From positions 1,650,001 through 1,682,000 of the forward strand of contig NC_013849.1 of the NCBI RefSeq assembly GCF_000025505.1: a stretch of 32,000 bases of DNA, written 5' to 3'. This document shows positions 4,801 through 20,882 of the stretch, in pieces (the first letter of the stretch is position 1; each line of letters opens with the position of its first letter). Below the pieces are notes generated by a model, which was not told the DNA's origin, did no database searches, and saw only the letters and a program-made list of their open reading frames with translations. Position numbers and translations under genes: made by a program. The DNA comes from Ferroglobus placidus DSM 10642. GTDB lineage: Archaea; Halobacteriota; Archaeoglobi; Archaeoglobales; Archaeoglobaceae.

Positions 4801-5261
4801 TCTTACCCATCTCTTCCCCAACTCTTTCAGCAGAGAGCTCAGAGAGGGGATGGAGAGAAGTAGAAAACATCGTTCGTGCAATAGCAGACAGCAATGAAAT
4901 AATCATCTTGGAAGTTGAAGACTCAGTTTTTTACGACAATAGCAGTTTCAAAAGGTTGCAGAGGACAATAGATTTCTTAACTAAAAACGAATTTGAAATT
5001 GTTAAACTCGAAGAAGTCAGAGAAGAGTTGGTAGCAATAGAGAAAATGAGCGTTAATATCTCCGGAAAATATCCAGAGAACTTCACAGTTAACATCTATT
5101 CCAAAGAAAATTTACCAGAAGCTGAGATTTTAATAAAGCTATCAATAGGAGATTTCAAAATCTCAGCAGAAAATGCCAAAATTGAAAAGCGGGGGAGTGT
5201 AATAAAAGCGTATTTAAACATTAGCAGCAAAACAGCAAGAATTCAAGTCAAATTTTCTTAA
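1893..5261 (+). CDS. Large polytopic membrane protein with GT-C-like architecture (~13 TM helices plus a ~670-aa extracytoplasmic domain). Function uncertain; possible glycan polymerase or transferase.
   Basis: 1122-aa ORF starting at ATG. The first ~450 aa contain about 13 hydrophobic helices (FIAILALLFFVGFAAPTIFFYI, LFILTVLLCLTPIFHAGTYLFLFSFFLVYIIVY, GAALFFAFFSIFLSFGIISVFG and others). The first loop, HGTDSYTHLFYTR, resembles the acidic first-loop motif of GT-C enzymes. The long C-terminal part is non-hydrophobic. There is no WWDYG motif, so it is not a canonical AglB/STT3. Confidence 0.55.
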   Translation: MKINDIKRLLNLKSLNIDSFIAILALLFFVGFAAPTIFFYIPHGTDSYTHLFYTRIFYETNSIEEFYNKLQNDYFTKTSYPFGFRLFSSLVMKISSIDAFSLSILQPLILLMLSSLLYYIYSKELIPEKDSKVHAFSVLFMLSMPVITIGILNFETDSFMFPFVILIFTLLLVEKPKQLFILTVLLCLTPIFHAGTYLFLFSFFLVYIIVYSVIYNRIPKAVFSFSAMLLSYVSLVNIFPEIHPQFGTKALFILRISDKIAGITGLNIFRSIGDSIYGGLFSEPSLINVFYAVIALYFLSILATKVSTFVKNKGTFSFAIAFATVPKSPIFLPFWIGPLQTLLSLLSLKRVDKKITSILIPLLIIVLPSAMITGERGLREIQYLFLIIPILSTLGFLQVVRTIKEKISSERIRGAALFFAFFSIFLSFGIISVFGNAYYHPKISIPQEDKFGLEWLRNVGSEKEGVGEIGYGHRVSVYASKIPPSAVWIPAGKEMRRYLIDYSKAVVEGDIDAAKDLSSSFGAKYLIVSSKTLKGLKTSWKEINLFDSVSYDKILSSKEFAIARFIEEKLVLSDIHPEVQLEEHPTVKDAGNFLLVETKSYKIRVGKTSPKIDYLGTKTENYLEEGSALDYVIFGKIKGEIIQGVEFSKVLLGENIVEYRGEITKDYIPVATLIVRYTFYPEAVKKEVTVFNDYNNIRVPVKITTRFYAPYTHFTTLSESGEKFNRTIYPNEDYVLLRDLEFREIFVYNEQRKGIYLSFEKTSPLPDRISYSGSTKHKGYSRIDFSVKKDLTRVYPGERVTVTQWISVGEENKAKMRIENSSFVNLHPYVKKPAILIVKFKEDVNDSILQRIESLNFPVVLSIPLHKQINIQKLKNYSSDNFQLAAYLKIRNDTIREEYYKNIPNISKFYPVKAIVDPYANLRSIMLFEEYGIRYVFNRYVSPPYLTLFDEGERFPTIAVVRGKETNVTLLPISSPTLSAESSERGWREVENIVRAIADSNEIIILEVEDSVFYDNSSFKRLQRTIDFLTKNEFEIVKLEEVREELVAIEKMSVNISGKYPENFTVNIYSKENLPEAEILIKLSIGDFKISAENAKIEKRGSVIKAYLNISSKTARIQVKFS

Positions 5262-6741
5262 GCTTGGATATCGCTTTTCTTATTTTTTCACTTTCTTTAT
5301 TTGAAGTGTGCTTGACATCTTTTTTCTCATCAAATATTTCCACCAGCACACGCCCATCAACATCTTCGGGAATCGGTAAATCGAGAGCGTAAAGAATCGT
5401 CGGAAATAAATCGTAAATTTTTGCATTAACTTCACCTCTCTTTATATTTTTCCCGTAAGCAGCGAAAATACCTTGAAGAGAGTGATAGCCTCCCTGTGAA
5501 AAGCGTTCAAAAGTTTCACCCACAATGCCGGAATCGAGGATAAAGCCGTTCGTTACAACTATGAAATCGGGAGCGTCATTCAAACAAGCTCCACTGTAAA
5601 CGTCATTTTTTGTAAAAACTTTTTTAACGACCTTTTTCCCTTGGTATTCGAGAATGCTCAAGAGCCTTAAGACCTCATGGAACGTCCTATCGTAATCTCC
5701 ACTGTCTTTTAGGTAAATAGTTGAGGAAAGTGGTGTAAGAACATAAGCTTTGGATTTCTCATAATCGACCCTTACCAAATAGCTAACTTCCCTTCCCTTA
5801 AACACAAGCCTGTAGATCTTTTTAGCAATCGTAGACGTCTTCGAATATAGAAGTATCTTGTAAAATATTTTTGGAATTCTTAACCTTCTTTTTTCCGTAC
5901 CAAACGCAGATTTAACATGAGTTTCAAGAATGGAAGTTTCTTCTTTCTTTACAATTTTAGGCTCCAGAAGGTTTTTATCGTGGAAAATTTTGTTAATTCT
6001 CACAAGGTAGTCGTAATCTGAAAAACCGTGATCTGAAACGACAAAAACAGTCGTATCGTCTTCGATTCTTTCAATTACCCATGCTAAAAATTCATCAACG
6101 AGCTTGAACACCTCCAAAAGTCTGCTGTTACCATTCTTAATTTCCCCCCAAAAGTTGTGAAGGATCGTGTCCGTTTCCCTAAAAAGGATGAAGAAGAATT
6201 GCCAATCTTCCTCAGAGAATACTTTTTTCCCAAGTTCCACTTGGCTTCTGGTTGTTTCAATTACGTCCTTTATTAGCTCCTCGCCACTCTTGTTGGGGTC
6301 TGAATAAACTGAGTAGTTGGATAGATCAATGCTTCCTTTCGGATAAACTTCTTTTTGAGGGTAAAGAAAATCTGAAATCATTATTCCGTTAAAATCAATT
6401 TTTGGTGGAAAAGACAAAGGTAATGCAATTATCACACTTCTAATTCCGTAATTCGACAGAACTTCGTAGATTGCTTTACCTTTAACATCTTTCGATCGAT
6501 TTAGCTTCATTTTTCCATTTTCCAGCTTAACGAAATCGAAAATACCATGCTTCCCGGGATTCTTACCTGTGTAAAAGGATACCCAAGCAGGAGCTGTTAA
6601 GGGGGGAAGAGTTGACTCCAAAAATCCCCAAGAACCGTTTTCTATAATCTTCTTTAATCCCTTCAGTTCGTTTCGATCGCACATCGGCTTTAAGATATTC
6701 CAGCTACCTCCATCAATTCCCACAACCACAATCCTCTTCAT
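5248..6741 (-). CDS. Alkaline-phosphatase-superfamily enzyme (type I phosphodiesterase / nucleotide pyrophosphatase family), apparently soluble
   Basis: Motifs: VVVGIDGGSW (metal-binding Asp), LPPLTAPAWVSFYTGKNPGKHGI (nucleophile Thr region) and VVSDHGF. No TM segments. The ORF track starts at GTG 6750 (GTGA overlap with the flippase stop). I prefer ATG 6741, which has GGAG 8 nt upstream. The 3' end overlaps the convergent 1893-5261 gene by 14 nt. Confidence 0.8.
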   Translation of the reverse strand: MKRIVVVGIDGGSWNILKPMCDRNELKGLKKIIENGSWGFLESTLPPLTAPAWVSFYTGKNPGKHGIFDFVKLENGKMKLNRSKDVKGKAIYEVLSNYGIRSVIIALPLSFPPKIDFNGIMISDFLYPQKEVYPKGSIDLSNYSVYSDPNKSGEELIKDVIETTRSQVELGKKVFSEEDWQFFFILFRETDTILHNFWGEIKNGNSRLLEVFKLVDEFLAWVIERIEDDTTVFVVSDHGFSDYDYLVRINKIFHDKNLLEPKIVKKEETSILETHVKSAFGTEKRRLRIPKIFYKILLYSKTSTIAKKIYRLVFKGREVSYLVRVDYEKSKAYVLTPLSSTIYLKDSGDYDRTFHEVLRLLSILEYQGKKVVKKVFTKNDVYSGACLNDAPDFIVVTNGFILDSGIVGETFERFSQGGYHSLQGIFAAYGKNIKRGEVNAKIYDLFPTILYALDLPIPEDVDGRVLVEIFDEKKDVKHTSNKESEKIRKAISKLKKI

Positions 6742-6746
6742 TTGGG

Positions 6747-8171
6747 TCACTCCATTTTAATCAGCTTTATCAGAATTCTCCTGTCACTTTCATCGAAAAT
6801 CTTGGCGTAGAGAAAAGCTAAAATCGCTATTAAACCTACGACAAGAATTAACGAGTTTTTACTCAAGATAGAAGCGTAAACGAAGGATGCCGAGAGTAAA
6901 ACAACTATCGTCGATTGGATAAAAAGGGGTTTGGAAAAGTCGAAGTGTCTTATGGCTACAAAACCTAAGAAAGCAAATGAAAAAGATCTCGCTATAAGTG
7001 TTGCAAAGCTCGCTCCAACAAAACTCCAGATCGGAATTAAAAGGAAATTGAGAAAAACGTTCAAAATCGCCGCAGCTGCCACCTGGTATGTTTTAATTAT
7101 CTGCATGTCTGCAGATCTAAAAAGGTTTCCCAACACAACATTGAAATACAAAAAAAGCTGGGACCAAGCTAAAATTTTTAAAGGCTCAGCAGAGCTGGAA
7201 AATTCTTCCCCAAAAATCGTAAGAATAAGAGTTTCGGAAAAACCACTCAAAGTCACTACAATAAACAATCCAACAACCAAAACGAACTTGAAAGAAATTT
7301 CACTCGTTTTAACAAGAGATGCTGTGGATTTTGTAAAAAGTCTCGATGTAACCGGGTAGAGGGCTGCTATAAACATTAGAGGAAGAAAGTTTAACGCAAA
7401 AACCATTCGGTAGGCTGCGCTGTAAAACCCTACTGCCCTTTCTCCAACCATAGCATACAGCATAATTTTGTCGGTATCGTTTAGAATTACAACAAAAGCC
7501 GTCGCAGCCCAGAAAGGGATACCTTCTCTGAAAACCATTTTCCAGAAACTTTTATCGAATTCGAAGGAAATTCTTTCGAGCATGATCTTTTTTACGAGTG
7601 CTGATATGAGAAACGTGAAGGAGATTGCGTTTGCGATTAGATACAACACTCCAAATTCCACCAAGCCAAAATTAAAAAGAACTAAAACGACAGTTCCGCT
7701 AAGTAAGGTGGCGCTTCTCAAAATTTTACCTAAAGAGATGTAGATCATTTCTTCAAGTCCTTGAAAGATCGATCGGAATATCGAAGCTAATGAGTCTATA
7801 GCGACTGCTAAACCAAGCAGATATGCTAAAAGCTTAGCTTCTTGCGGGTAATTTGCAAAAAATAGATAGAGGAAAAATGCCCCAAAAACTACAACCACTA
7901 TTATCGATTTTAACAGGAGCAGATTTGAAAAGAACTTTTTCGCAACTGCTTTATTTCTCGCAACCTCTCTTATCGTCAATTCAAAAAAGCCAACGTCCGT
8001 GAACAATCTGAGCACTCCTGTTAAAGCAAGGAAAAAAGAAAGAACTCCGAAACCTTCAACTAATAAATGTCTCGCGAGGAGTATGGTATAACTGACCGTG
8101 AAAACTTTCGCACCAATTTCCCCAAAAACCATAACAAGGGTGTTTTTAGCAACTCTTCTGGCGGTACTCAT
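6747..8171 (-). CDS. Polysaccharide/oligosaccharide flippase (Wzx-like, MOP superfamily)
   Basis: 474 aa and highly hydrophobic throughout (about 12-14 TM). The N-terminus, ARRVAKNTLVMVFGEIGAKVFTVSYTILLARHL, is typical of the Polysacc_synt family. ATGA overlap with the upstream GNAT gene. Confidence 0.8.
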   Translation of the reverse strand: MSTARRVAKNTLVMVFGEIGAKVFTVSYTILLARHLLVEGFGVLSFFLALTGVLRLFTDVGFFELTIREVARNKAVAKKFFSNLLLLKSIIVVVVFGAFFLYLFFANYPQEAKLLAYLLGLAVAIDSLASIFRSIFQGLEEMIYISLGKILRSATLLSGTVVLVLFNFGLVEFGVLYLIANAISFTFLISALVKKIMLERISFEFDKSFWKMVFREGIPFWAATAFVVILNDTDKIMLYAMVGERAVGFYSAAYRMVFALNFLPLMFIAALYPVTSRLFTKSTASLVKTSEISFKFVLVVGLFIVVTLSGFSETLILTIFGEEFSSSAEPLKILAWSQLFLYFNVVLGNLFRSADMQIIKTYQVAAAAILNVFLNFLLIPIWSFVGASFATLIARSFSFAFLGFVAIRHFDFSKPLFIQSTIVVLLSASFVYASILSKNSLILVVGLIAILAFLYAKIFDESDRRILIKLIKME

Positions 8172-8665
8172 TTATTCCCTCCAAAAATTCGTAAACGGTA
8201 TTTAACGAAAAAACTGAATCTGCAAATAAGCCTAAACAAAAGAACGACGATTGGCTGGAAAAATTTGTATCTCGTCATTCTGATCATGTAGTAAAATTCA
8301 TCGTCTTCTTTAACGATTCTGTAATCTACATCTCCGTATAGTGACAAAGCTCTTTTATTGTTCTTCCGAACTATAACCTTCACAATGAAATAATTTTCTT
8401 CGACGCATTCTTTCAGTCTTAAGTGCAGTTTTTTCCCTACCCCTTTGCCTTGGTGTTCTCCCCTAACAACCAAGTACAAACGGGGAAAAACTCTGCCTTT
8501 AATGGTGCCGCAAATCCCCGCTATTTCACCATTCACTCTTTCAGCAAGAATAACGTCCGACTTCATTAAATCTTCTAAGGGAGTTCTAAACGCCTCTTTT
8601 TCCTCCTTCAAAGAAGAAACGAAATCTGCAAGCTCCTCTCGTGTCAGTTCCCATTTTTCAGACAT
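8168..8665 (-). CDS. GNAT-family N-acetyltransferase
   Basis: Acetyl-CoA-binding signature VVRGEHQGKGVGKKLHLRL (R/Q-x-x-G-x-G/A). The core is followed by an unusual ~35-aa basic and hydrophobic tail (FFQPIVVLLFRLICRFSFFVKYRLRIF). Confidence 0.75.
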   Translation of the reverse strand: MSEKWELTREELADFVSSLKEEKEAFRTPLEDLMKSDVILAERVNGEIAGICGTIKGRVFPRLYLVVRGEHQGKGVGKKLHLRLKECVEENYFIVKVIVRKNNKRALSLYGDVDYRIVKEDDEFYYMIRMTRYKFFQPIVVLLFRLICRFSFFVKYRLRIFGGNK

Positions 8666-8666: not shown

Positions 8667-9695
8667 TCACAATCCGCCTCTTAACTTTTTAAGAGAGGAG
8701 TAGACAGTATTTCCAACCTTTCCTAATATAGATAGGTTTTTTGAAGTAGAATACCAAGGAACGAGCTCTGGATTAAACTTTGCCTTGTAATGTCTCAGTC
8801 TTTGATCATCTCCAGCGTCAATCTCTTCGTAAAACTTAAATCCGCTTTTCCAGCTCCACTTAATAGCTTCCCATTGAAGAACGTCGTTCGGATAGACTCC
8901 TTTTATTGACGTTTTACTCATCCCAAACCAATAGGAAACTCTGTCCTTGTGACAGAGTAAAACGATCCCGCCAACAACATCTCCTGAATATTCAGCGACG
9001 AATATCCTCAGCTTCTCGGGATAGTACTTTTCGAAAATTTCTTTGAAATAGCTTTCGTAGTAGTCTTCTGGGAGTTTAACTCCCATTTCCTCAAATCTCC
9101 TTTTCATATTCAATCTCACAAACTCCAGATCCTCGAAATCTCCGTCTCTAATACTTACTCCCCTCTGCTTTGACTTTTCTACGCTTCTCCTTAGAGATCT
9201 GTCCAAATCATCCCAAATTTTTGTAAGGTCTCTTTTCAAACTCAAAACGTAGGTGTACTGAGGAGTAACGGAGTATCCACACCAGTTAAAGGGGCGTGAA
9301 TCCAGTAAAAATGGTGGAGTTCTTATTCTCACATAGTCAGCTCCAAGCCCTTTGAGAAAAGTATCTACTGCTTTAACAGATTCGATGAGAATCGTTTCCT
9401 TTTTGCTTTGCTTCAACTTTTCATAAGAGATCAAAGCCGGTCCGAGGTAAACCATGATGACTTTGGGCGGAGGTGAGAAAGCGAGTGTTAATCCAAACCT
9501 TCTTGTTAAGAAGATCGGGAAAATTGCTACCGGAGTTGAGTTCTTTTTTACGACTAACGGATAGAGCTTCGCTTTGGAGTAATTCTCCGCTGCTTTCAAC
9601 CACCCCCATTCGTGAAATATCGTCGTATAATCGGCTTTATTTACCAACTCATCCCATTCCTCTTCGTTTACAATTTCAGCTAAGTACTCCGACAT
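8667..9695 (-). CDS. FemAB-like (Acetyltransf_6 / BioF2-like GNAT-fold) aminoacyl/peptidyl-transferase family protein, paralog 1
   Basis: 342 aa. The N-terminal motif TTIFHEWGWLKAAENY and the later YPNDVLQWEAIKW resemble the FemAB-related proteins of exopolysaccharide loci. It is colinear with the paralog at 11944-12948. Confidence 0.65.
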   Translation of the reverse strand: MSEYLAEIVNEEEWDELVNKADYTTIFHEWGWLKAAENYSKAKLYPLVVKKNSTPVAIFPIFLTRRFGLTLAFSPPPKVIMVYLGPALISYEKLKQSKKETILIESVKAVDTFLKGLGADYVRIRTPPFLLDSRPFNWCGYSVTPQYTYVLSLKRDLTKIWDDLDRSLRRSVEKSKQRGVSIRDGDFEDLEFVRLNMKRRFEEMGVKLPEDYYESYFKEIFEKYYPEKLRIFVAEYSGDVVGGIVLLCHKDRVSYWFGMSKTSIKGVYPNDVLQWEAIKWSWKSGFKFYEEIDAGDDQRLRHYKAKFNPELVPWYSTSKNLSILGKVGNTVYSSLKKLRGGL

Positions 9696-9704: not shown

Positions 9705-10823
9705 TCAAAACCTCCTCCCCAGGATTTCGAAAATTTCATAGAGATTTGGTGTTAAATCCGAAAAGTCGAACATAAATTCCCTATACTTAAGAAAATTCAG
9801 GAAATCCAACAGATTTCTTATTTTTTCTTTTTTCGTTTCTTTTTTAGAAAAAAGAACATCTGCTATCGACTTGAAGTCCTCTAAAAAACTTCTCAAATGA
9901 ATGCCTTCAGCGTGTTTCGTTTCGATTTCGTCAATTATGCCGAAATAAAATCTATAAAGCAACCAAGGGAAGTCAACTCCACAAATTGCAGCAGCATTAA
10001 CGCTGCCCCAGAACCTCGGATTTACATCGATGAGCTTTGGTTTACCATCGGTTTCGTCGATAATAAAATCAAAATTAATTATCCCGGAATACTCGACCTC
10101 CTCCGCAAGCTTTTCAGAATATTTCAAACAATCGTCGTTTCTGGAGCTTTTGAGGTAAGTGGCTGGTCCGAAGGGATACGGATAAAATCTCAACCTTTCG
10201 TAAACGAAAGCAGCTACAAAGTTCGATTTATCGCAGATTCCAGAAATGCTCAGCTGCTTTCCTTCTACCACTCTCTGAAGGAGAACGTCCTTCTCATTAA
10301 ATCTGAGTTCATCTTTAAGTGAAAGGTACTCGGATTCGTTCCTTATTACGTAAACTTCCCTCCCTCCACTACCAATTCTGAATTTTAAAATGAACTCACC
10401 AGATTTTGCAAATTCAAGAGCATCAGATTCGGATTTCGGGAAAACTGTCTCTGGCACAGGGATTCCTATTTTTTGAGAGATTTCAGTAATTCTTCCCTTA
10501 TCTACCAATGTCTTGACAGCCTCATAATCCCCACAAGCTATCCTAATTCCGTTTTCAATTTTCGATTTAACTTTAGCAAGATCGACAAGCTCTTTTTCTG
10601 GAAGAAGCGGAATAAACAGTTCGCAATTCTCATTCAAAGCCACTTCCAAGGCTTCCCGGTAACTTCTCACGAGGTGATTTTTCGAAGAATATTTTGAGTA
10701 GAACGCCGGAACTCTTTCTTTACTTGAAGCTAAATGAACTCTAACTCCTCTCCTACCCAGAGACCTCGCTATTGGTAAAGCAGGAGAGTCTGCTGCGTCG
10801 TAAACCATTATATTTTTTCTCAT
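9705..10823 (-). CDS. ATP-grasp enzyme (predicted carboxylate-amine ligase, COG3919-like)
   Basis: 372 aa. N-terminal Rossmann-like region (DSPALPIARSLGRRGVRVHL). Central ATP-grasp region (FILKFRIGSGGREVYVI, LLQRVVEG). C-terminal metal-binding region INFDFIIDETDGKPKLIDVNPRFWGS. Confidence 0.75.
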   Translation of the reverse strand: MRKNIMVYDAADSPALPIARSLGRRGVRVHLASSKERVPAFYSKYSSKNHLVRSYREALEVALNENCELFIPLLPEKELVDLAKVKSKIENGIRIACGDYEAVKTLVDKGRITEISQKIGIPVPETVFPKSESDALEFAKSGEFILKFRIGSGGREVYVIRNESEYLSLKDELRFNEKDVLLQRVVEGKQLSISGICDKSNFVAAFVYERLRFYPYPFGPATYLKSSRNDDCLKYSEKLAEEVEYSGIINFDFIIDETDGKPKLIDVNPRFWGSVNAAAICGVDFPWLLYRFYFGIIDEIETKHAEGIHLRSFLEDFKSIADVLFSKKETKKEKIRNLLDFLNFLKYREFMFDFSDLTPNLYEIFEILGRRF

Positions 10824-11947
10824 TACAATTCCCCAAATACAACCCTCTGATACAGTTCGAAATACCTCCTGCCGATATTGGGAAATGAAAACTTATTCTT
10901 CACGTATTTTCTGATAAAACTGCTTGGAAACTTTCTGTGATTATCTATCATCCACTCTATCGCTTGCTCGAAAGCTTTTTCATCGGTCACATCCACAACA
11001 ATCCCCGTTTTTCTCACAACGATTTCCTTCTGTCCTTTGTCACTCACTATTACCGGCTTTCCGCAAGCCATAGCTTCTATAACTACGACTCCAAACACTT
11101 CCCACAGACTCGGGAGAATTAGAAAGTCCGTTTCCGGTAAAATCTTCGAAACTTCCTCTCTCTTTTTCGATCCGAGAAATTCAACAACATCAGATAATCC
11201 GTAGTCTTCACTCAATTTTTTGTAGTAACTGAAACGAGAACCCCCGCCAACCAGAAGTAAATGAAAATCGTTTAAATCCGGACGTAAATTCTTAACAGCT
11301 TTTAGTAATTTATCCACACCCTTTATCGGATCGAGCCAACCTACGAAAATTCCTCTGGTTTTATGTCCAGCGTTATTTCCTCTTCTGAACGACTCCGTGT
11401 TTACGGCATTTGGTATTACGAATATCTTATTCGAAACTCCCAAGTTCAAAAGGTACCTCTTAAAAAAATTTGAAGGGACAACAACAGCATCGGCACTGCT
11501 TAAAACTACTTTGCCTAAAAACACTCTCAACTTATCCGATAGCCTTTTCTCAAACCTTTTTTGGAACTTCATGTGCTCCGTCAGCATTACTGGCTTTTTC
11601 CTCAATTTTCCGAGGATTATCGAGAGTATTCCGGCTGTAAAGACGTGAGCGTGAATAATATCCGGTTTAACTTCCCTTTCAATTTTAAGGAGTTCGAAAA
11701 CTACGAGAGGATAAAGAAAGAAATGGAGCTTAGCTGGAAGTTCCCTCACACTAATTCTGTACACAATGATGCTGTCATCCTGAAATTTTTCCACCTTAAC
11801 AGCTTTTCCCAAATTTTTTTCTAAATATATGTGTACGAGAAAAGATTTTACGTATTTTGAAGTTGCAACCGCTAAGTCCCTAACGAAGATGCCAGATGCG
11901 GAATTCTTCTTATGAGGATACCAAGGAGTGATAGATAACACCTTCAC
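10823..11947 (-). CDS. GT-B glycosyltransferase, family GT4 (Glycos_transf_1)
   Basis: Canonical C-terminal motif SLWEVFGVVVIEAMACGKPVIVSD. GTG start in a GTGA overlap with the upstream FemAB-like stop. Its stop overlaps the next ATG by 1 nt (TAATG). Confidence 0.85.
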   Translation of the reverse strand: MKVLSITPWYPHKKNSASGIFVRDLAVATSKYVKSFLVHIYLEKNLGKAVKVEKFQDDSIIVYRISVRELPAKLHFFLYPLVVFELLKIEREVKPDIIHAHVFTAGILSIILGKLRKKPVMLTEHMKFQKRFEKRLSDKLRVFLGKVVLSSADAVVVPSNFFKRYLLNLGVSNKIFVIPNAVNTESFRRGNNAGHKTRGIFVGWLDPIKGVDKLLKAVKNLRPDLNDFHLLLVGGGSRFSYYKKLSEDYGLSDVVEFLGSKKREEVSKILPETDFLILPSLWEVFGVVVIEAMACGKPVIVSDKGQKEIVVRKTGIVVDVTDEKAFEQAIEWMIDNHRKFPSSFIRKYVKNKFSFPNIGRRYFELYQRVVFGEL

Positions 11948-13434: not shown

Positions 13435-13465
13435 AGACCCGTAAACTTTACCTTCCCAGAATATT
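13435..13465. repeat. Left terminal inverted repeat of the IS
   Basis: See the IS entry. 22 of 31 positions match the reverse complement of 14091-14121. Confidence 0.6.
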
Positions 13466-13480
13466 ATTCAGACAATTTTG

Positions 13481-14114: not shown

Positions 14115-14121
14115 CAGGGCT
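14091..14121. repeat. Right terminal inverted repeat of the IS
   Basis: See the IS entry. Confidence 0.6.
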
Positions 14122-14129
14122 GTTTCTGG
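14122..14129. repeat. Right copy of the 8-bp target-site duplication GTTTCTGG
   Basis: Identical to 13427-13434. Confidence 0.8.
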
Positions 14130-15032
14130 GATAGTAAGGTTTAAATTGTGCTGCCTTATTCCCGAAACTTCTTTTCCTATAACATTTTCCAGTCTTTCTT
14201 TTTCCAATTTCATCAATTTTGAATCCTTGAAAGAATTATAAGAGCCATGAAGAGCTATTTCCCACCCGCCTTTGTCAAGTGATCTTATGATTTCAACAAC
14301 CATTTTATCATCAAACTTATACCTTCTTCCGTAATGTTTCCAGCTTTTCGGAGTTAGAGAGGTCTTAGCAGTTTCCTCTAAAAAGAAGAACGTTGATTTA
14401 ACTTCGTAGCTATCCTCCAGCTCCATTAGCTCCTCAAATGTCCAAAATGGATTTTCCTTTTTCAAAAAATCGTGAAAGAATCCATATATCTCTCTAAGAG
14501 CGTCTTTTATTTCCATTCGCTTAAAATGCCTGAGGGCGTTCGTGAAATATTGGTAGGTTTTCGCGATTTCATCAACATCGTGAGTTAAGCATATGGAAAG
14601 GGGTAAATGTTTTCTAAAAAGGGGATAACCATTTTGGCTATACAAATCAGCGATTATGTTCACCAAATTCCTCTCAAGAATGTCCAGATAAGGAATTCTG
14701 CCAATCTTCGCAAAATCGTATCCATTCTTCAAACAATCCTTTTCGAAGTCTCCGGAAATTATGTAGCCAATTATTTCAAAAGGATTAAAGTCCACTCCAG
14801 CATGCGTTTTACTTTGAATTTCAACAAATTTTGAAAAGTTACAGTTATTGATAAAGAAGTCGTAAAGCTGGGAGGTGTCGAAGCTTTCGTTTGAAAACGA
14901 AACTTGAACTTCTGGATTTCTGGAAATTACACCACTCTCTTTGATAACAACATTATCGGCAAGACCGTTTCTTTCTGAAAACAATTTTGCTCCGATCTTA
15001 GAGTAAAAGTTTTCGATACATTTACCCTCCAA
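14122..15032 (-). pseudogene. N-terminal fragment of the CE4 / NodB-type polysaccharide deacetylase (the ORF reads 16 nt into the IS, to a stop at 14106)
   Basis: Motifs LSICLTHDVDE (Asp-Asp metal/catalytic motif), GWEIALHGSYNSF and VSGIRQHNLNL. After ...TIPET the frame continues into the IS inverted repeat (ALST*). The only in-frame start near the 5' end is TTG at 15032. Confidence 0.8.
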
Positions 15033-16020: not shown

Positions 16021-16042
16021 TTTATAGATACAACTATAAAAA
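16021..16042 (-). promoter_or_regulatory. Candidate TATA boxes for the PEF-CTERM cargo gene
   Basis: The 95-bp AT-rich gap (15991-16085) is the largest in the array. On the minus strand, TTTTTATAG (16042-16034) and TCTATAAA (16028-16021) lie about 45-65 nt upstream of the ATG. Confidence 0.3.
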
Positions 16043-16085
16043 CCTTTCTTCCATAAATAGTAAAAACTTGTTATTATGATCATAA

Positions 16086-17114
16086 TTAATGTTCAACTTC
16101 CTCAACGAAGTTCACAAGCCACTCACTTAAATCGACTTTTTCTTTGATAAGAACATCCCTTCTTCTTTTCCAGATTCTTTTAGATCTCTTGTCTTCGAGG
16201 ATTTTAACAGCTCTTTCTAAAGCCTCTTCTTGGTTCGCATAGAACTCAATAAGCTTGTATTTGTTTCTCAACTCAAGCAAGTTACCTGACATTAATCCTG
16301 TAGGTAAACCGCTACTTGTCGATTCGACATGTATGGAGGGCGTTCCGAGTACAGCCGCTTCAACAGCCATTGTAGCTCCTTCTCCAATGTACATGTCAGC
16401 GAAGTAAAGTAAAGAGTGGGCAAGTTCTGGTGGAATTTTCGCATTTTCCCCGTTTTTACTCTCATTAAGTACAACAACGTTTCCGAAATCTTCAAGAGTT
16501 TTTTTGGCTTTCTTATAATCCTCCAATCCTTTCAAACTCCTATCGTGATAGGCATTCCAAGAAATTGTTCTGAAAACTATAAACCTCTCGTTTTTTGGGA
16601 AATCCAAGTAATCGTAAACAGTCCTATCTTCTCTAAAGTTGTTCGGATGCAAGTAAGCTAACTCAAAAAAGCTGTTAAATCGCACATGTTTTTCTCCAAA
16701 ATCTCCAAGAAAGCTCTTTGGTGTAACAACATACTTTGAGAAAGGTACGGTTATCATGTGCAGCTTTTTGGCTATTTCAGTGTCTTCGAGTATCACATAA
16801 TCTCCCCCAACAACCGCATTTGCGTGAACCATGTGAGGGATGGGTCTTCCTATGGTTACATCCGGTCTAAATTTCCTCAATATACTCAGTGAGCTTCTTT
16901 CGTATTTAACAAGTTTGAGCAATTTGGAGTAAATGTTACCACCGCTCTCACCAAGTATTTTGTAGTTTTCATAGTACTTTTCGAGCAAATACATCGTTTC
17001 TCCCTTATTCACAGCTAAAACCAGAATTTCATGTCCTCTTTTCTCCATCTCTTTAACGAAATGTCGAAATATGTGCACGTGTTTTGGATGCACTACTCCA
17101 ATGGCTACCTTCAA
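16086..17114 (-). CDS. DUF354-family protein (archaeal, predicted GT-B-like fold; function unknown)
   Basis: The N-terminus, KVAIGVVHPKHVHIFRHFVKEMEKRGHEILVL, matches my recollection of the DUF354 signature (H-V-H-x-F ... L-x-x-R-G-H-E). TTG start preceded by GAGGTGAGGA. Confidence 0.55.
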   Translation of the reverse strand: MKVAIGVVHPKHVHIFRHFVKEMEKRGHEILVLAVNKGETMYLLEKYYENYKILGESGGNIYSKLLKLVKYERSSLSILRKFRPDVTIGRPIPHMVHANAVVGGDYVILEDTEIAKKLHMITVPFSKYVVTPKSFLGDFGEKHVRFNSFFELAYLHPNNFREDRTVYDYLDFPKNERFIVFRTISWNAYHDRSLKGLEDYKKAKKTLEDFGNVVVLNESKNGENAKIPPELAHSLLYFADMYIGEGATMAVEAAVLGTPSIHVESTSSGLPTGLMSGNLLELRNKYKLIEFYANQEEALERAVKILEDKRSKRIWKRRRDVLIKEKVDLSEWLVNFVEEVEH

Positions 17115-17120
17115 ATTTCC

Positions 17121-17960
17121 TCACCTCTTCAGCAAAATATAAGAAATTGGAAGAAGTACAATCATGAAAAAAATCCATCCGAGATGCGAGTGAACTTTCA
17201 GCATGAAATCAGAACCAAAGTTGTAGGTGAGGTAAACCAATACTGCTACCCTAAGTAAGTTGGCTATGTAAACAGCCACAGCCAAAACGATAAGTGTTTT
17301 CGCTACTCCTCTCCAATCCCTCCAATGGAAAGTGAGGTTGTAGGATAATACCATGCTCGTAACGAGAAGCAACGAATACCATCCGAAGCAAGCTAGGTCT
17401 ATCCTCAAAAATGCGTGATTTTCTCCGAGAACTTCAATAATTCTAAAGTCAGATAGTTTTACACCAATTCCAATTGACTGCAAGAGCATCACAACTGGGA
17501 CAGCAACTGCGTAATGTCCGTAGAGATACGGCAAGTACATGCTAATTTTTGCAGGGATCATGAACAAGAATGCGAAGAGTATTAAAAATATCAGAGAAAA
17601 GTAAGCTCCGAATTTGCCTATTTCCGAATACTTGCTCCCGGATCCGTAGAATATGAGGGAAACACCAAAAAGAATTACCATCGTATCAAAGGTTTGGATT
17701 TTAGAGTCGATGATATTATTCACGAATAAGTCCAGCACTGTTACTGCTACTCCTACAGATATAAAAAACCAAGATCTACGAAGCTCTTCGAAAGTGTCTT
17801 TAGAGTTTTTAGCCAAAAGAACCAGAGCTATCAAGGATAAAAAGAGAAAGAAAATTCCGATATACACTGTTCCGTAAGCAAGTTCTATCGATGCTCCGAC
17901 TATTAAAGCTGCCAAGACGATTATCCCTAATTCACTGGAAAACTTCATCTTATTATCCAT
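17121..17960 (-). CDS. artC: Archaeosortase (exosortase/archaeosortase family; probably the PEF-CTERM-specific ArtC type)
   Basis: 279 aa with about 8 TM helices. Family signature residues appear in order: Cys in RIDLACFGWYSL, Arg in YIANLLRVAVL, His in KVHSHLGWIFF. It lies two genes from a PEF-CTERM protein. An alternative ATG at 17948 forms an ATGA overlap with the PIG-L stop. Confidence 0.75.
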   Translation of the reverse strand: MDNKMKFSSELGIIVLAALIVGASIELAYGTVYIGIFFLFLSLIALVLLAKNSKDTFEELRRSWFFISVGVAVTVLDLFVNNIIDSKIQTFDTMVILFGVSLIFYGSGSKYSEIGKFGAYFSLIFLILFAFLFMIPAKISMYLPYLYGHYAVAVPVVMLLQSIGIGVKLSDFRIIEVLGENHAFLRIDLACFGWYSLLLVTSMVLSYNLTFHWRDWRGVAKTLIVLAVAVYIANLLRVAVLVYLTYNFGSDFMLKVHSHLGWIFFMIVLLPISYILLKR

Positions 17961-18583
17961 CTTATAACCTCGAAAACTTCCGCATACTCTACATTTATCT
18001 GCACTCCTCGCGTTCTTGCTAAACTTTCTATAAAACTTCCATTAAAGTAAGGTCGTTCAGCTTGAGATTTATATTTCGTAAGAGCGAGTATTTTCCGCTC
18101 AATATGTCTTTTGTCCAGTGGAATAAAAGCGGTCGTATCAAAAGTGAGGTTGTTCCACGGCTGTTCATAGCCAAGGATCGTGCAACCTTTAAATGCTCTT
18201 AGTGTTTCCTCCCTTGTAACTTTGTGATCCTGATGGGTGTCGTAAGAAGAGGGTGTGAAAACCACATCTGGAGATATGTTCTTTCGAACGTTTATTAAAG
18301 AATCCAAAATCTCCTGTCTGAATGTCGGAAACTTCCTCACTTCGAAGTCGTAAAGTAGAACGTTCTTTTTATCTATTCCAAGAACTTCCATTGCTTCCAA
18401 AACCTCTTTTCTGAGAATGTTTTTAGGGTAAATTTTAGGAACGGATTTTTCACACGAAGATAAAGCAGCGTAATAGACTTCCCTCTCTTCTTCAACGAAT
18501 TTAGCAATGCTCCCACCACATCCTAGCTCTCCATCATCGGTGTGTGGGCTTAAGATTAAAATCCTCTCAAACATCACTATCAC
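17945..18583 (-). CDS. PIG-L / LmbE-family N-acetylglucosaminyl deacetylase
   Basis: Signature ILILSPHTDDGELGCGGSIAK (P-H-x-D-D) and a later HQDH. GTG start in a GTGA overlap with the upstream stop (alternative ATG at 18574). Confidence 0.85.
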   Translation of the reverse strand: MIVMFERILILSPHTDDGELGCGGSIAKFVEEEREVYYAALSSCEKSVPKIYPKNILRKEVLEAMEVLGIDKKNVLLYDFEVRKFPTFRQEILDSLINVRKNISPDVVFTPSSYDTHQDHKVTREETLRAFKGCTILGYEQPWNNLTFDTTAFIPLDKRHIERKILALTKYKSQAERPYFNGSFIESLARTRGVQINVEYAEVFEVIRWIIR

Positions 18584-20118
18584 TCTAAAATTCCGAGCGG
18601 GTCTATCCTTCTATTTTCTTTCTCCAAATCCCAAAAAACTCTGTAAATGTTCAGAATCTCCGGTGAATCGTAGAAAACCACCGATTCGACTTTGTAAAAT
18701 TCTCCAATCTCATTTTTAGTGATTCTACCATCCTTAACCAGCGAAACTTCCCATGCGGTTTTGAGCTTGTTTAAGCCAACATTTGCTGCAACATCCACGA
18801 TTGAAGGTTTTAGAGTGAAAACACTGCTTGCCGATGAAATTATACTGCTCGTACGCTTATATTGGGACAAGTACTTTTTCCTAACCTTTCTGTCTGACGT
18901 TCCGTTTATTTTTGCGGCAATCTGTCTCCTCCTACTTTCCACTTTATTCAAAATTACGTGTTTTTCCCACAAATCTTTTTCAGATAACCGGAATTCCTTG
19001 GAAATGGAATTAACAGCTGCTTCATGCTCCTTCCCCAAGTAAACATCCATGGATTCCCAGAAAATCGTTTTCGGAATATTAAAGCCGAAGTTCTCAGAAA
19101 TTTCATTTGATATTAGTCCATACTTCAAACTTCCACCAGAGCCAGTAATAAAAACAGACGTACCCATTCCTTCAAAGAACAGGACATTCCTCATAATCGC
19201 TTTTGGACTTAAGTTTTCGAGTTCTTCGTGAAGATCTTCTAACTCAACCTTTTTTCTGCAAAGGTTGCATTCCCCAATAAATCCATTATCTTTCCTTTCA
19301 ATAGATACTTTACCCCCACATTCACAGTGGTACCAGAACGGTAGGGCATTTTTGCTCGCTTTTAGATCTGAAAAGTTTAGGTTTTCTGCAGCAGAATTCT
19401 GGAAGAAATTAAACGCCTCAACGTTCTCTATTATTTCTTTCCAAACTTTACCAAACAGCTTTTTGTTTTGCACGTCAGAACTTCTGAAAAACCTGATGTT
19501 CAAACCGATCAATCTGCATATCCTCGCAAACGATATAGCATTCAAGTCTGCAAAGTTGTCAGAAAGATCGTAACTAATCCACAGTTCCTCTACAATTTCC
19601 TCAACGTCGATATTACTAAGATAGTTCCTTGAAATATCCTTCACTACCTTCTCCCACTTTTCTTCTGACGGTTTATCAAGTTCATTAAATCTCTTCCATA
19701 TCTCGGAGTCGTTAGGTCTTCTGAGACCTATGTTCAGAAATCCGTATTTATTCATTTTTGGAATTCTGTTCTGGAACAAGAGCTTCGATGAGGATATGTC
19801 GTAATCAAGGAATCCAAAGAAAGCAATAGAGCTTTCATCAGAGTTTCTAAGTTCTTTTTCTATAAATTCTGCAAGAAAAGCTTTTTTCCAAATCCCCGAA
19901 TACGGTAGGAAGAGGGGTTGGTGTCCTGTCTCTATCACTAAAATCTTTTTGTCTATTCTATTGTCCTTATAGGGGATTTTCGCATCTCTATGGAACTTTT
20001 CAGATACCTCCAACAATCCTTTTAAATTTCTTCTCTGGTCGTTACCTAAAATTTTTCCACTACCAGCTATATTCTCGCAAAACTCAGAAATATTCATACT
20101 ATTCAGCTCCTTCCTCAT
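18580..20118 (-). CDS. BshC-like putative ligase with a CxC...CxxC zinc-ribbon element (function unproven)
   Basis: 512 aa. Three stretches resemble the B. subtilis BshC blocks as I recall them. VIETGHQPLFLPYSGIWKKAF resembles VVGGQQAGLLTGPLYTIHK. LSPKAIMRNVLFFEGMGTSVFITGSGGSLKYG...FGFNIPKTIFW resembles [30 protein letters not shown]...GFKMPPVMPR. VSIERKDNGFIGE resembles FLIEKDNGRFV. The zinc ribbon is WYHCECGGKVS...GECNLCRKK. An alternative ATG at 20097 has GGAG 9 nt upstream. Confidence 0.5.
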   Translation of the reverse strand: MRKELNSMNISEFCENIAGSGKILGNDQRRNLKGLLEVSEKFHRDAKIPYKDNRIDKKILVIETGHQPLFLPYSGIWKKAFLAEFIEKELRNSDESSIAFFGFLDYDISSSKLLFQNRIPKMNKYGFLNIGLRRPNDSEIWKRFNELDKPSEEKWEKVVKDISRNYLSNIDVEEIVEELWISYDLSDNFADLNAISFARICRLIGLNIRFFRSSDVQNKKLFGKVWKEIIENVEAFNFFQNSAAENLNFSDLKASKNALPFWYHCECGGKVSIERKDNGFIGECNLCRKKVELEDLHEELENLSPKAIMRNVLFFEGMGTSVFITGSGGSLKYGLISNEISENFGFNIPKTIFWESMDVYLGKEHEAAVNSISKEFRLSEKDLWEKHVILNKVESRRRQIAAKINGTSDRKVRKKYLSQYKRTSSIISSASSVFTLKPSIVDVAANVGLNKLKTAWEVSLVKDGRITKNEIGEFYKVESVVFYDSPEILNIYRVFWDLEKENRRIDPLGILE

Positions 20119-20425
20119 TTTTTCTGTTTATAAAGACGAGCTCGACTCTCCAGACAGTAATCATCAAAATCGTAAAAATAAGTAGAGATACGAAAAGATT
20201 TGAAGGAGTCGTTTTTGCACCAAATCCGATATCTATCGAAATAGCTACTAAAACCACTACAACAATACTGATAACACCGGAAAACGCTATTCTTTCAGCA
20301 AAGCTCAACTCATCTTTTTTTGGAAATATAGCCAACATCGTCGCATATCCCGGAATAAAAAACACGAAAATCAATCCGAATAACAACCTCGCCCCGTTAA
20401 TTATAACTTCTACAGCATTAACCAT
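20099..20425 (-). CDS. Small membrane protein resembling the N-terminal TM module of DUF1616 proteins
   Basis: 108 aa with 3 TM helices. The motif FFIPGYATMLAIFPKKDELSFAERIAFSGVISI matches the DUF1616 N-terminal pattern (PGY...FP...ER.A.S). Confidence 0.5.
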   Translation of the reverse strand: MVNAVEVIINGARLLFGLIFVFFIPGYATMLAIFPKKDELSFAERIAFSGVISIVVVVLVAISIDIGFGAKTTPSNLFVSLLIFTILMITVWRVELVFINRKNEEGAE

Positions 20426-20882
20426 CTAAACCTCCCTCCTTAAGCCTCCAAATTTTGTACTTATTGAATCCCATTACAAAAATTTGAGAAAGAATTAGTC
20501 CAAGCATATCGGCAAACAAATCCATCACACTCGAAGATCTTCCGGGAACAAACATCTGATGAATCTCATCGAAGATTCCGTAACTTGTACCAATTAAGAT
20601 CGTCATAACGTAAGGATTGAATTTTATTAGATCTCTCACAGCTGGATTCAACACAAACCCAAATCCCACATAAAGCAGAATGTGTGCAAATTTGTCCGGA
20701 TACTTAAATGCGAAATAAAATGGAACTGCTAAAAATCCCAAACCGTGTTCTTTAAGAAAGTCGTAAATCACTACGATGTTCTCTCTTGAAATCGGATTGG
20801 GAGGATTTGAGGAAGAGGATAGGAGAAATATTGCAGAAGCATAAACTATCGCAAAAATTCCATAAATGTACTTTTTCTGCAT
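20418..20882 (-). CDS. VanZ-like family membrane protein
   Basis: Motifs DKFAHILLYVGFGFVL and DEIHQMFVPGRSSSVMDLFADMLGLILS are typical of VanZ-like proteins. It is the first gene of the minus-strand array. Confidence 0.7.
   Translation of the reverse strand: MQKKYIYGIFAIVYASAIFLLSSSSNPPNPISRENIVVIYDFLKEHGLGFLAVPFYFAFKYPDKFAHILLYVGFGFVLNPAVRDLIKFNPYVMTILIGTSYGIFDEIHQMFVPGRSSSVMDLFADMLGLILSQIFVMGFNKYKIWRLKEGGLDG

Follow-up and report, generated by a model that had tools for sequence, protein, structure and literature searches.

To what does archaeosortase C (ArtC) join the protein that it sorts? To our knowledge an acceptor has been described for ArtA alone among the archaeosortases and for no exosortase, and the question is raised in a specific form by a stretch of 32,000 nucleotides of the hyperthermophile Ferroglobus placidus DSM 10642 (contig NC_013849.1, positions 1,650,001 to 1,682,000, Ferp_1909 to about Ferp_1927; hereafter the window), in which the genes for ArtC and for a single substrate with a PEF-type sorting tail, here called the cargo, lie within a minus-strand array of genes for sugar and aminoacyl enzymes. 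In the reading that we favour, the locus is a conserved archaeal envelope cluster in which ArtC and its one cargo are embedded in a pathway for a polyprenyl-linked, aminoacylated amino sugar, and the glycan so made is the acceptor; we give this reading a probability of about 0.4. The functional coupling of ArtC and the cargo to the glycan pathway is very likely, and the product of the pathway is probably an amino sugar on a lipid carrier, with amino acids attached through amide bonds; a role of this sugar as the acceptor for ArtC is put forward tentatively. The gene identities, the folds and a linkage conserved across lineages are direct observations.

Families were assigned by scanning the window proteins against Pfam and NCBIfam (Table 1). 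The sorting enzyme had been called an archaeosortase in a preliminary description drawn from the sequence of the locus alone, and this was confirmed by a score of 125.4 bits on the NCBIfam model TIGR03762 (cutoff 100), together with matches to the exo/archaeosortase signature TIGR04178 (6.6e-13, 48.8 bits against a cutoff of 23) and to Pfam Exosortase_EpsH (3.8e-13). The protein is 100% identical to the one annotated as "Exosortase EpsH-related protein" in F. placidus DSM 10642, as the 512-aa and 1122-aa window proteins are to Ferp_1923 and Ferp_1909. The ArtC residues C190, R236, H256 and H258 were invariant among 11 homologs.

The cargo is the sole window open reading frame (ORF) with a sorting tail of the kind expected for such an enzyme. 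The tail is IPEF-GLLAIPVGLMLGLVYIV-RRE, its C-terminal end reading IPEFGLLAIPVGLMLGLVYIVRRE, and is tripartite, with the PEF motif abutting a hydrophobic helix that is followed by a basic cluster at the extreme C-terminus. The earlier assignment as a PEF-CTERM protein thus held for the architecture of the tail and not for the corresponding model: no match to TIGR03024 (cutoff 23 bits) was found at E <= 0.1, the sole match at that threshold being PEFG-CTERM TIGR04296 with 13 bits against a cutoff of 25. For comparison, a Methanosarcina PEF protein reached 42 bits on TIGR03024. In 10 cargo orthologs, which adjoin ArtC in the Archaeoglobi, the I, P, E and F of the tail were invariant, as was a D-G-D-x-x-D-W-G motif near the N-terminus. 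The cysteine of a C-[GA]-N-[DE] motif placed 5-12 residues before IPEF was also retained in 10/10 orthologs and in 103 of the 128 tailed members of the wider family; this residue might serve in recognition, be modified or form a disulfide.

That wider family was collected from a search space of 1.8 billion representatives, which returned 147 relatives of the cargo. The 128 with a tripartite tail include 75 with an exact PEF motif and 42 with a PEF-like one, and about nine members carry a tail of the bacterial PEP-CTERM type (IPAPGA...RRRR; e.g. P0176, P0166, P0205 and P0216), P0176 reaching Pfam PEP-CTERM at 7e-12. On sequence comparison, a single client domain family spans archaeosortase and exosortase systems. 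For the globular domain itself, searches of Pfam, NCBIfam and the PDB returned nothing, even with the threshold relaxed to E <= 1. A cargo-centred survey of metagenome loci, in which some contigs belong to the same assemblies as other loci of this study so that the samples are not fully independent, placed an exo/archaeosortase gene beside the cargo homolog in 12/14 loci with a length of 10 kb or more, and several of the enzymes concerned fall below the ArtC model cutoff. As a separate observation, the partner enzymes of cargo-family proteins in five loci (L110, L111, L117, L119 and L042) scored 26-43 bits on the ArtC model (cutoff 100) and matched the family signature; by their scores they look like one or more unnamed archaeosortase subfamilies with PEF-like signals.

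The linkage between ArtC and the surrounding genes was evaluated in an ArtC-centred survey, in which an alignment of ArtC homologs was used to collect 37 loci from one-genome-per-species contigs, 12 from Archaeoglobi and allies (including Alkanophaga and a Hydrothermarchaeota metagenome-assembled genome) and 25 from Methanosarcinales. Neighbours were counted by tblastn and profile searches with the window proteins in the 22 ArtC loci of at least 15 kb. DUF1616 was the most frequent neighbour (21/22), followed by DUF354 (20/22), Fem-like genes (18/22), PIG-L (13/22), BshC-like or WbqC genes (13/22) and GT4 glycosyltransferases (10/22), and the control window genes EamA, MFS and UbiA were found in 0/22. 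A lack of these neighbours at other archaeosortase loci, which the preliminary description had named as grounds for abandoning its idea, was thus not observed. Tails made of [IV]PEF, a helix and a basic cluster occur near ArtC in most loci; a cargo homolog directly adjoins ArtC in most Archaeoglobi-type loci, and in the window and in L001 the DUF354 gene stands between the two.

Three arrangements of these genes were recognized. Loci of the Archaeoglobi type run through MraY-like, the middle part of DUF1616 (on the opposite strand), VanZ, the N-terminal part of DUF1616, BshC-like, PIG-L, ArtC and cargo, and then DUF354, (CapK-like adenylating enzyme), a VimE-like deacetylase, two or three Fem genes (sometimes with GT4 and ATP-grasp) and Wzx, with a convergent homolog of Ferp_1909 at the end; ArtC and the cargo are inserted between PIG-L and DUF354. 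In Methanosarcinales, ArtC is divergent from a set comprising CE4-like, Fem, DegT, hexapeptide acetyltransferase, DUF354, WbqC, GNAT, PIG-L and GT2 genes, and its other flank carries genes for an M48 peptidase, for full-length DUF1616 and for small PEF-CTERM proteins with scores that reach TIGR03024; the window proteins are 25-34% identical to their Methanosarcinales counterparts. The third arrangement (L042) begins with the whole module; Wzx and a cargo homolog ending in a VTPEF tail come next, and an exosortase-family gene stands at the far end. The M48-family metallopeptidase stands directly beside ArtC in 21/25 Methanosarcinales loci (e.g. L029, 10834-11919) and in 0 Archaeoglobi loci, and may serve the disposal of the cleaved helix or a second processing step.

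A close relative of the window (L045, whose Ferp_1909 homolog is 85% identical) carries at 13356-23369 a tandem duplication of the unit [GT4 - ATP-grasp - Fem], which is present in a single copy in the window. This suggests a modular block of "one sugar plus amino acids" whose copy number varies among close relatives.

One pair of genes in the cluster encodes enzymes that would expose and acylate a sugar amine. The PIG-L/LmbE-family deacetylase, whose best NCBIfam match was BshB1 (5.4e-16, below cutoff), adjoins a BshC-like gene in every locus examined (L001-L003, L005, L009, L010 and L038-L044); the two overlap by 4 nt in the window, and L041 has the order GT4 - PIG-L - ligase. The BshC-like protein, Ferp_1923, gave no BshC match in scans of Pfam-A (which holds PF10079) or NCBIfam, where only a weak match to Pfam WbqC (1.1e-4) was returned, and direct PDB sequence searches matched only its zinc ribbon. 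Its family comprises about 50 clusters, and distant homologs (E 1e-21 to 1e-22) carry Pfam BshC PF10079. An AlphaFold2 model computed from a 29-sequence alignment had a predicted local distance difference test score (pLDDT) of 93.2 and a predicted template modelling (TM) score of 0.92, and its top Foldseek match was Bacillus subtilis BshC (4WBD; E 3.5e-13, TM 0.60, about 550 columns), after which came class I LysRS and further aminoacyl-tRNA synthetases of class I and, lower in the list, MshC. The BshC-like identity suggested earlier was therefore recovered in the fold and not as a sequence-level match. Invariant residues of the family are H65-Q66-P67, K78 and the Cys4 zinc ribbon C264/C266/C283/C286. 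At the corresponding place beside PIG-L, the Methanosarcinales carry a 222-aa WbqC protein (Pfam 230 bits) whose HQPNYLPY motif is common with the Ferp_1923 family.

The two FemAB-like paralogs of the preliminary description, which share 38% identity, were verified by scores above the Pfam cutoffs (FemAB 41.4 and 35.3 bits against 24; Acetyltransf_6 48.3 and 40.7 against 22). Their best NCBIfam model was TIGR03019, the FemAB family associated with XrtA/PEP-CTERM systems, with 38.4 and 42.9 bits, far under its cutoff of 260. A profile built from 16 members matched Staphylococcus aureus FemX (6SNR, 4.4e-17), Weissella FemX (about 1e-15), aminoacyl-tRNA-dependent peptide synthases (1e-06) and FemA (1LRZ). 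No tRNA gene, and hence none dedicated to the Fem enzymes, is present in the window, which is uninformative on an aminoacyl-tRNA donor. For the ATP-grasp ligase, matches of about 1e-17 to 1e-18, all far under the cutoffs, were obtained with NCBIfam PRK06849 and with the Ddl-like model for archaeal pseudomurein, and the best NCBIfam models of the GT4 enzyme, all below cutoff, were the XrtA-system stp2 TIGR03088 (1.1e-26), BshA (4.8e-26) and MshA (1e-24). DUF354, presumed to be a GT-B-type glycosyltransferase, found among PDB sequences only MurG (1F0K) at a non-significant E of 0.52, and no claim of a MurG identity was made on this sole match. Mur-ligase families were not found in the window scans, an ATP-grasp ligase being there instead. 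The Pfam matches in Table 1 also bear out the ATP-grasp, GNAT, PIG-L, GT4, DUF354, Wzx and alkaline phosphatase (AP)-superfamily calls made earlier. The amide-forming enzymes of the locus all lack signal peptides and membrane segments, a property that fits cytoplasmic assembly before flipping.

The CE4-type deacetylase had been listed simply as one of two deacetylases; its family was confirmed, and its gene was found to be broken. An interruption of 836 nt in the array (13270-14105) holds an opposite-strand transposase ORF of the IS6 family, so that, contrary to what had been stated, the gaps on either side of the cargo gene are not the only larger ones. The transposase matched NCBIfam NF033587 (1.9e-32; 112.6 bits, cutoff 125) in an alignment that stops at profile position 157/202, and it also matched Pfam DDE_Tnp_IS240; a frameshift near 13970 carries its reading into another frame. 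The terminal inverted repeats of the insertion sequence (IS) are imperfect (14/20 matching), and a perfect 8-bp target duplication, GTTTCTGG, was found at 13427-13434 and 14122-14129 around it. An intact 511-aa ortholog from L003 aligned by tblastn in two pieces and in different frames, residues 314-473 to 13434-12970 (frame -3) and residues 13-319 to the N-terminal fragment, for which the listed ORF (14106-15032) runs a few codons into the IS; the reading ...NLNLTIPET ends at about 14112 and PETWKIQEK resumes at 13434. In silico removal of the IS and one copy of GTTTCTGG returned a single ORF of 462 aa, whose best family was VimE (NF053580; 1.3e-25, 89.9 bits against a cutoff of 440), a UDP-2,3-diacetamido-2,3-dideoxy-glucuronate deacetylase, and whose second-best was the XrtA-system polysaccharide deacetylase TIGR03006 (5.7e-07). 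Since the target duplication is perfect, the sequence suggests a recent insertion. The IS may be polar on the eight downstream genes, and as the VimE-like gene is split, F. placidus DSM 10642 may be a natural mutant in which the pathway is broken or impaired.

Wzx, the MraY-like enzyme and UppP would cover the lipid-carrier steps. The Wzx-type flippase also matched Wzx_EPS (Table 1), and homologs stand at this end of the cluster in L002, L003 and several Methanosarcinales loci. The MraY/WecA-type transferase and UppP were found just beyond the array, where they had been placed before. The MraY-like gene lies beside the cluster in 9/12 Archaeoglobi-type loci and in L042 and L110, and its product scored 53 bits on the archaeal MraY model (cutoff 450); the linkage of UppP is weak, as it adjoins the cluster only in L006 and L038. 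The VanZ-like gene is kept in Archaeoglobi-type loci, all of which also keep the split DUF1616 pair on opposite strands; the 143-aa member of the pair occurs in L039, L042 and L110 as well, and Methanosarcinales have one 806-aa DUF1616 protein near ArtC. The convergent Ferp_1909 showed no Pfam, NCBIfam or PDB sequence match. Its AlphaFold2 model, of moderate quality (pLDDT 66.7) and derived from only 8 homologs, led Foldseek to STT3, PglB, DPY19 and ArnT for the membrane part and to GH36, GH31 and mutarotase folds for the rest, and the motif G44-T45-D46-x-Y-x-H50 is invariant. The predicted structure gives a lead to a GT-C-like enzyme with a beta-sandwich or glycoside-hydrolase-like C-terminal part. 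Ferp_1909 homologs were found in the clusters of L005, L009, L010, L039/L040 (29% identity, E 1e-90), L042 and L110, which include lineages without ArtC.

From these data a mechanism can be proposed. The MraY/WecA-like enzyme would prime the lipid carrier with N-acetylhexosamine-1-phosphate, and the GT4 and DUF354 enzymes would extend the glycan. PIG-L would strip an N-acetyl group and the BshC-like ligase would put an amino acid on the freed sugar amine, following the logic of bacillithiol and mycothiol synthesis. The VimE-like deacetylase, the FemX-like transferases (probably dependent on aminoacyl-tRNA) and the ATP-grasp ligase would add or extend amino acids, following the Wbp/Vim and FemXAB logic. 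Wzx would then flip the product and UppP recycle the carrier. Outside the membrane, ArtC would cut the cargo at IPEF and join the C-terminus so formed to the aminoacyl-sugar through its free alpha-amine, thus tethering the cargo to a glycolipid or glycan, and the GT-C-like Ferp_1909 might transfer or polymerise the same glycan. A stronger claim, which we consider doubtful, is that ArtC and by extension the exosortase family are true transpeptidases whose nucleophile is an amino-acid alpha-amine on a de-N-acetylated, polyprenyl-linked sugar, the work of a PIG-L/BshC-like pair and a VimE-like/FemX-like pair.

The closest proven system is that of PorU, the sortase of type IX secretion, and the Wbp/Vim proteins in Porphyromonas gingivalis and Tannerella forsythia. 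In P. gingivalis the CE4 deacetylase VimE takes the 2-N-acetyl group off a di-N-acetylated uronic acid, Ser or Gly is added by VimA (itself a match to TIGR03019) to give a 2-N-seryl or 2-N-glycyl sugar, and the sortase-like PorU links the cargo C-terminus by an amide bond to that amino acid on the lipopolysaccharide A-LPS (PMC7468200). A VimE-type deacetylase, a FemAB-like protein, a GT4 and a transpeptidase for a C-terminal signal, a putative one in the case of ArtC, are common to both systems. However, PorU is a gingipain-like protease and the window enzyme an intramembrane member of the exosortase family; the PorU signal is a C-terminal domain of about 80 aa and the window signal a short PEF motif with helix and basic tail; the archaeal system has no outer membrane or lipopolysaccharide; and the window lacks Wbp genes, while its PIG-L/BshC-like pair, ATP-grasp and DUF354 proteins have no Vim counterpart. 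Veith et al. 2020 proposed an amino-acid-modified sugar as the acceptor of bacterial exosortases and pointed to VimA-like, deacetylase, glycosyltransferase and exosortase genes lying together in Nitrosomonas, Nitrosococcus and Desulfovibrio (PMC7468200), so that the acceptor idea carries over to archaea a hypothesis already published for bacteria.

The XrtA/PEP-CTERM exopolysaccharide loci of bacteria (Haft et al. 2006, 2012) resemble the window in their homologous sorting enzyme, tripartite signal and co-located FemAB-family, polysaccharide-deacetylase and GT4 genes, and the XrtA-associated models TIGR03019, TIGR03006 and TIGR03088 are best or second-best NCBIfam matches of window proteins. 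The differences are the archaeal host, the ArtC subfamily, a PEF instead of a PEP motif and a single dedicated cargo where XrtA serves many clients; the described XrtA set does not include the PIG-L/BshC-like pair, DUF354, DUF1616 or MraY-like genes. With Sortase A, lipid II and FemXAB the window has in common FemX-homologous transferases, an MraY-family primer, a MOP flippase, UppP and a Cys/Arg/His transpeptidase, putative in the case of ArtC, for a motif followed by a helix and a basic tail; no Mur ligase was found in the window scans, there is no MurNAc pathway or peptidoglycan, and the ArtC fold is unrelated and lies within the membrane. Bacillithiol and mycothiol synthesis likewise uses a GT4, a PIG-L deacetylase and a ligase of the class I aminoacyl-tRNA synthetase fold that acylates the freed glucosamine amine, and the window GT4, PIG-L and 512-aa proteins have BshA/MshA, BshB1 and 4WBD as top or near-top matches. 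In contrast, the window sequences score far under the Bsh cutoffs, the ligase contains a zinc ribbon, the Methanosarcinales use a short WbqC, and bacillithiol is a soluble thiol whereas the window encodes a membrane/glycan pathway with a flippase. ArtA of the PGF-CTERM system of Haloferax volcanii is a homologous enzyme with conserved Cys/Arg/His and a tripartite signal; it serves many clients, yields a lipid-anchored product and is not described in an aminoacyl-sugar pathway, whereas ArtC has one adjacent cognate cargo. Two further analogies were discarded. A resemblance to glycosylphosphatidylinositol anchors (GT4 as PIG-A, PIG-L, and the AP-superfamily enzyme as ethanolamine-phosphate transferase) fails as the AP enzyme has no membrane domain and occurs in 0/37 ArtC loci, and a pseudomurein-like pathway fails as MraY_archaea (53 against 450) and Ddl_archaea (62 against 500 bits) do not indicate orthologs.

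Several explanations compete with the proposal that the glycan is the ArtC acceptor. It is highly improbable, and largely refuted, that ArtC and the cargo came to lie in a polysaccharide locus by chance: such loci are large and variable and some ArtC loci have no module in their flanks, but the linkage holds in Archaeoglobi, Methanosarcinales and other lineages with the controls at zero, and its persistence in three arrangements at 25-34% identity rules out chance adjacency. A real possibility, if short of probable, is a coupling that is not covalent, and this is the main rival. Here the module and the GT-C-like enzyme would build a surface glycan (for instance a capsule, a polymer associated with the S-layer or a glycolipid), ArtC would lipid-anchor the cargo as ArtA does, and the cargo would be an assembly, binding or scaffold factor for the glycan, co-regulated with it through the shared envelope layer. 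The occurrence of the module without a nearby archaeosortase in several lineages favours it, as do the lipid-anchored ArtA product, the GT-C-like enzyme with its glycoside-hydrolase-like part as an independent consumer of lipid-linked glycan, and a cargo family that is a single conserved globular domain with the sorting tail almost always present. It leaves unexplained why it is enzymes that expose and aminoacylate sugar amines that are kept. In the two sortase-type systems with proof, lipid II/FemXAB and PorU/Vim, the nucleophile comes from just this amine chemistry. Pfam and PDB scans of the cargo returned no carbohydrate-binding domain. We consider it improbable that the glycan instead decorates the cargo, with the GT-C-like enzyme glycosylating N- or O-linked side chains and ArtC only removing the C-terminal helix. 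The membrane part of Ferp_1909 does resemble the oligosaccharyltransferases STT3 and PglB, and heavy glycosylation has been proposed for exosortase/archaeosortase substrates (Haft 2023 preprint); however, the model is of low confidence, the cargo has no Ser/Thr-rich linker before its tail, CGN[DE] yields an N-x-S/T sequon only in some orthologs, and the amine-exposing and aminoacylating enzymes would be left without a role.

Other observations weigh directly against the glycan as ArtC acceptor. Six loci collected from the BshC-like family have the BshC-like/PIG-L pair and lack an archaeosortase within 10 kb, namely L038 (Methanoregula), L039/L040, L041, L043 and L044; four of them (L038, L043 and the metagenomic L039/L040) also carry DUF354, VimE-like and Fem-like genes, and in L041 and the Hodarchaeota locus L044 the pair stands in another polysaccharide-gene context. 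In Methanoregula a small deacetylase, a PHP protein and an ATP-grasp ligase take the position of ArtC and cargo in Archaeoglobi; the 251-aa gene that follows PIG-L there was considered as an archaeosortase and rejected as a deacetylase-like protein. Because the module occurs without a nearby archaeosortase, synthesis of an ArtC acceptor cannot be its sole role, and judged by its distribution it is older and wider than the ArtC association and must have a role of its own. Conversely, five ArtC loci (L020, L022, L025, L026 and L036) have no module in the sequence available. If its predicted fold is correct, Ferp_1909 would be another extracytoplasmic consumer of the flipped glycan. The scores on the equivalog models VimE, TIGR03019, TIGR03006, TIGR03088, BshB and MraY_archaea are all far under the cutoffs. 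The Wbp genes (WbpA, WbpB, WbpE and WbpD), which in the Wbp/Vim pathway supply the di-N-acetylated uronic acid, were absent from the window in the Pfam and NCBIfam scans; Wbp-type genes do lie beside the MraY-like gene in the sister loci L002, L003, L005 and L011, where a UDP-GlcNAc 3-dehydrogenase with an equivalog-level score (475 bits, cutoff 450) is accompanied by a DegT aminotransferase, an NDP-sugar dehydrogenase and a hexapeptide acetyltransferase. By analogy with MshD in mycothiol synthesis, the GNAT of the locus could cap the free amine. The deacetylase gene is IS-disrupted in the sequenced strain. ArtA, the only archaeosortase studied experimentally, as reviews and the Haft 2023 preprint agree with the preliminary description, gives a lipid-anchored and not a glycan-linked product (PMC6098224), and one-step transpeptidation is unproven for exo/archaeosortases in general (reviews; Haft 2023 preprint). 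Apart from these points, the idea is less unprecedented than had been stated, PorU with Wbp/Vim being proven and Veith et al. 2020 having proposed it (PMC7468200).

The AP-superfamily enzyme and the GNAT also reduce the earlier picture of a lipid-linked, N-deacetylated and aminoacylated glycan. The gene content agrees with such a product as far as PIG-L and the BshC-like ligase, the VimE-like and FemX-like enzymes, the MraY-like transferase, Wzx and UppP are concerned. Homologs of the AP-superfamily enzyme were absent from all 37 ArtC loci and were found in the Ferroglobus-like contig L045 and, beside PIG-L and the BshC-like gene, in L044; the window GNAT is kept only in the Ferroglobus lineage (L045), an unrelated GNAT lying between PIG-L and WbqC in Methanosarcina (L029). 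By this distribution the two are accessory and outside the core of the cluster, a further point against the proposed pathway as first drawn. Taken together, the preliminary observation is partly confirmed and its interpretation partly supported.

Table 1. Features of the F. placidus locus in window coordinates.
Feature	Position	Strand	Basis or description
Ferp_1909, 1122-aa membrane protein	1893..5261	+	Convergent with array; multi-helix N-terminal domain and large extracytoplasmic part
AP-superfamily phosphodiesterase / nucleotide pyrophosphatase-type	5248..6750	-	Pfam Phosphodiest 1.1e-35; no membrane segments
Wzx-type (MOP superfamily) flippase	6747..8171	-	Polysacc_synt 1.9e-31 (110 bits); Wzx_EPS 4.6e-17, sub-cutoff
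GNAT acetyltransferase	8168..8665	-	Pfam Acetyltransf_1, _7, _10 at ~2e-06
FemX-like aminoacyl transferase, paralog 1	8667..9695	-	Acetyltransf_6 1.6e-12; FemAB 1.1e-10
ATP-grasp amide ligase	9705..10823	-	Pfam ATP-grasp_3 6.9e-12
GT4 glycosyltransferase	10823..11947	-	Pfam Glycos_transf_1 1.7e-36
FemX-like aminoacyl transferase, paralog 2	11944..12948	-	Acetyltransf_6 3.3e-10; FemAB 7.6e-09; TIGR03019 3.2e-11
VimE-like (CE4-type) deacetylase, C-terminal part	12949..13434	-	tblastn with L003 ortholog
IS6-family insertion sequence, 687 bp	13435..14121	+	Transposase ORF 13478-13978
VimE-like deacetylase, N-terminal part	14122..15032	-	tblastn with L003 ortholog
Cargo, 304 aa	15061..15975	-	ATG at 15975; N-terminal signal peptide, globular domain, CGN[DE], sorting tail
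DUF354, presumed GT-B-type glycosyltransferase	16086..17114	-	Pfam DUF354 4.1e-17
Archaeosortase C (ArtC)	17121..17960	-	TIGR03762, TIGR04178, Exosortase_EpsH
PIG-L / LmbE-family N-deacetylase (BshB/MshB-like)	17945..18583	-	Pfam PIG-L 1.4e-19
Ferp_1923, BshC-like class-I-aminoacyl-tRNA-synthetase-fold ligase, 512 aa, inserted zinc ribbon	18580..20118	-	Fold
108-aa membrane protein, DUF1616 N-terminal part	20099..20425	-	DUF1616 1.7e-12, profile positions 20-114
VanZ-like small membrane protein, first array gene	20418..20882	-	VanZ 1.1e-12; vanZ_1 67 bits (cutoff 20)
143-aa protein, DUF1616 middle part, divergent	20964..21395	+	DUF1616 4.4e-05, profile positions 150-260
MraY/WecA-family polyprenyl-phosphate HexNAc-1-P transferase	21382..22350	-	Glycos_transf_4 1.1e-23 (84.5 bits)
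UppP/BacA polyprenyl-diphosphate phosphatase	22911..23669	+	Pfam BacA 3.6e-45 (155 bits)

In the six-frame ORF list the minus-strand array extends from 20882 down to 5248, as described before, and the count of 15 genes given for it holds only when both deacetylase fragments are taken as one broken gene. The junctions reported earlier were all present in the list, with 4-nt overlaps at 6747-6750, 8168-8171, 11944-11947 and 18580-18583, a 1-nt overlap at 10823, an abutment at 12948/12949 and an 8-nt overlap at 20418-20425; the PIG-L/ArtC overlap at 17945-17948 stands if the second ATG is the start of ArtC. Gaps at 15033-15060 and 15991-16085 flank the cargo gene. A TATA-like element, AAATTATATATAG, was noted by eye about 25 nt upstream of the VanZ-like gene (within 20883-20925), and two others, AAAGGTTTTTATAG and TCTATAAAGG, were noted in the same way in the 95-nt gap upstream of the cargo gene (within 15976-16085); GGTGA stands 9 nt before the cargo ATG at 15975. 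Because TATA-like boxes precede both the first gene and the cargo gene, the sequence suggests an operon promoter and an internal one, with the cargo possibly expressed independently of the operon.

Between the MraY-like and UppP genes, a 117-aa Cys/His-rich protein (22430-22783, minus strand) contains an HPHCKHCG motif and has no family match. It is kept beside ArtC or the cluster in L002, L003, L007, L020, L022 and L025 and, from its sequence, may be a small zinc-binding regulator. The right flank of the window (26384-29550) encodes a UbiA prenyltransferase and CitG-like, DUF447 and DAGK/NAD-kinase-like proteins, preceded by EamA and MFS transporters; homologs of these genes were absent from the ArtC loci, and they therefore appear to be unrelated to the cluster.

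The locus and its relatives thus provide a chemically specific candidate for an archaeosortase acceptor, an aminoacyl amino-sugar on a lipid-linked glycan, and since the linkage also occurs in Methanosarcina, which has genetic tools, the acceptor question is directly testable. The IS disruption of the type strain matters to experimenters using Ferroglobus placidus. The comparison also delineates a widespread archaeal module (BshC-like, PIG-L, DUF354, VimE-like, two or three FemX-like and GT-C-like enzymes), for which no curated name or paper was found in the libraries searched; likewise, no relevant literature was found on Ferp_1918 to Ferp_1923, on WbqC or on exosortases with FemAB. The cargo domain family is common to archaeal PEF-tailed and bacterial PEP-CTERM-tailed proteins. 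If ArtC is indeed a transpeptidase with the glycan as its acceptor, the cluster would be a third, independently evolved version of the principle seen in sortase with lipid II and in PorU with A-LPS, in archaea without a cell-wall polymer. The archaeal answer would also cover XrtA, because the cargo domain occurs with bacterial PEP-CTERM-type tails, and the XrtA acceptor, unknown since 2006, would thereby be identified too.

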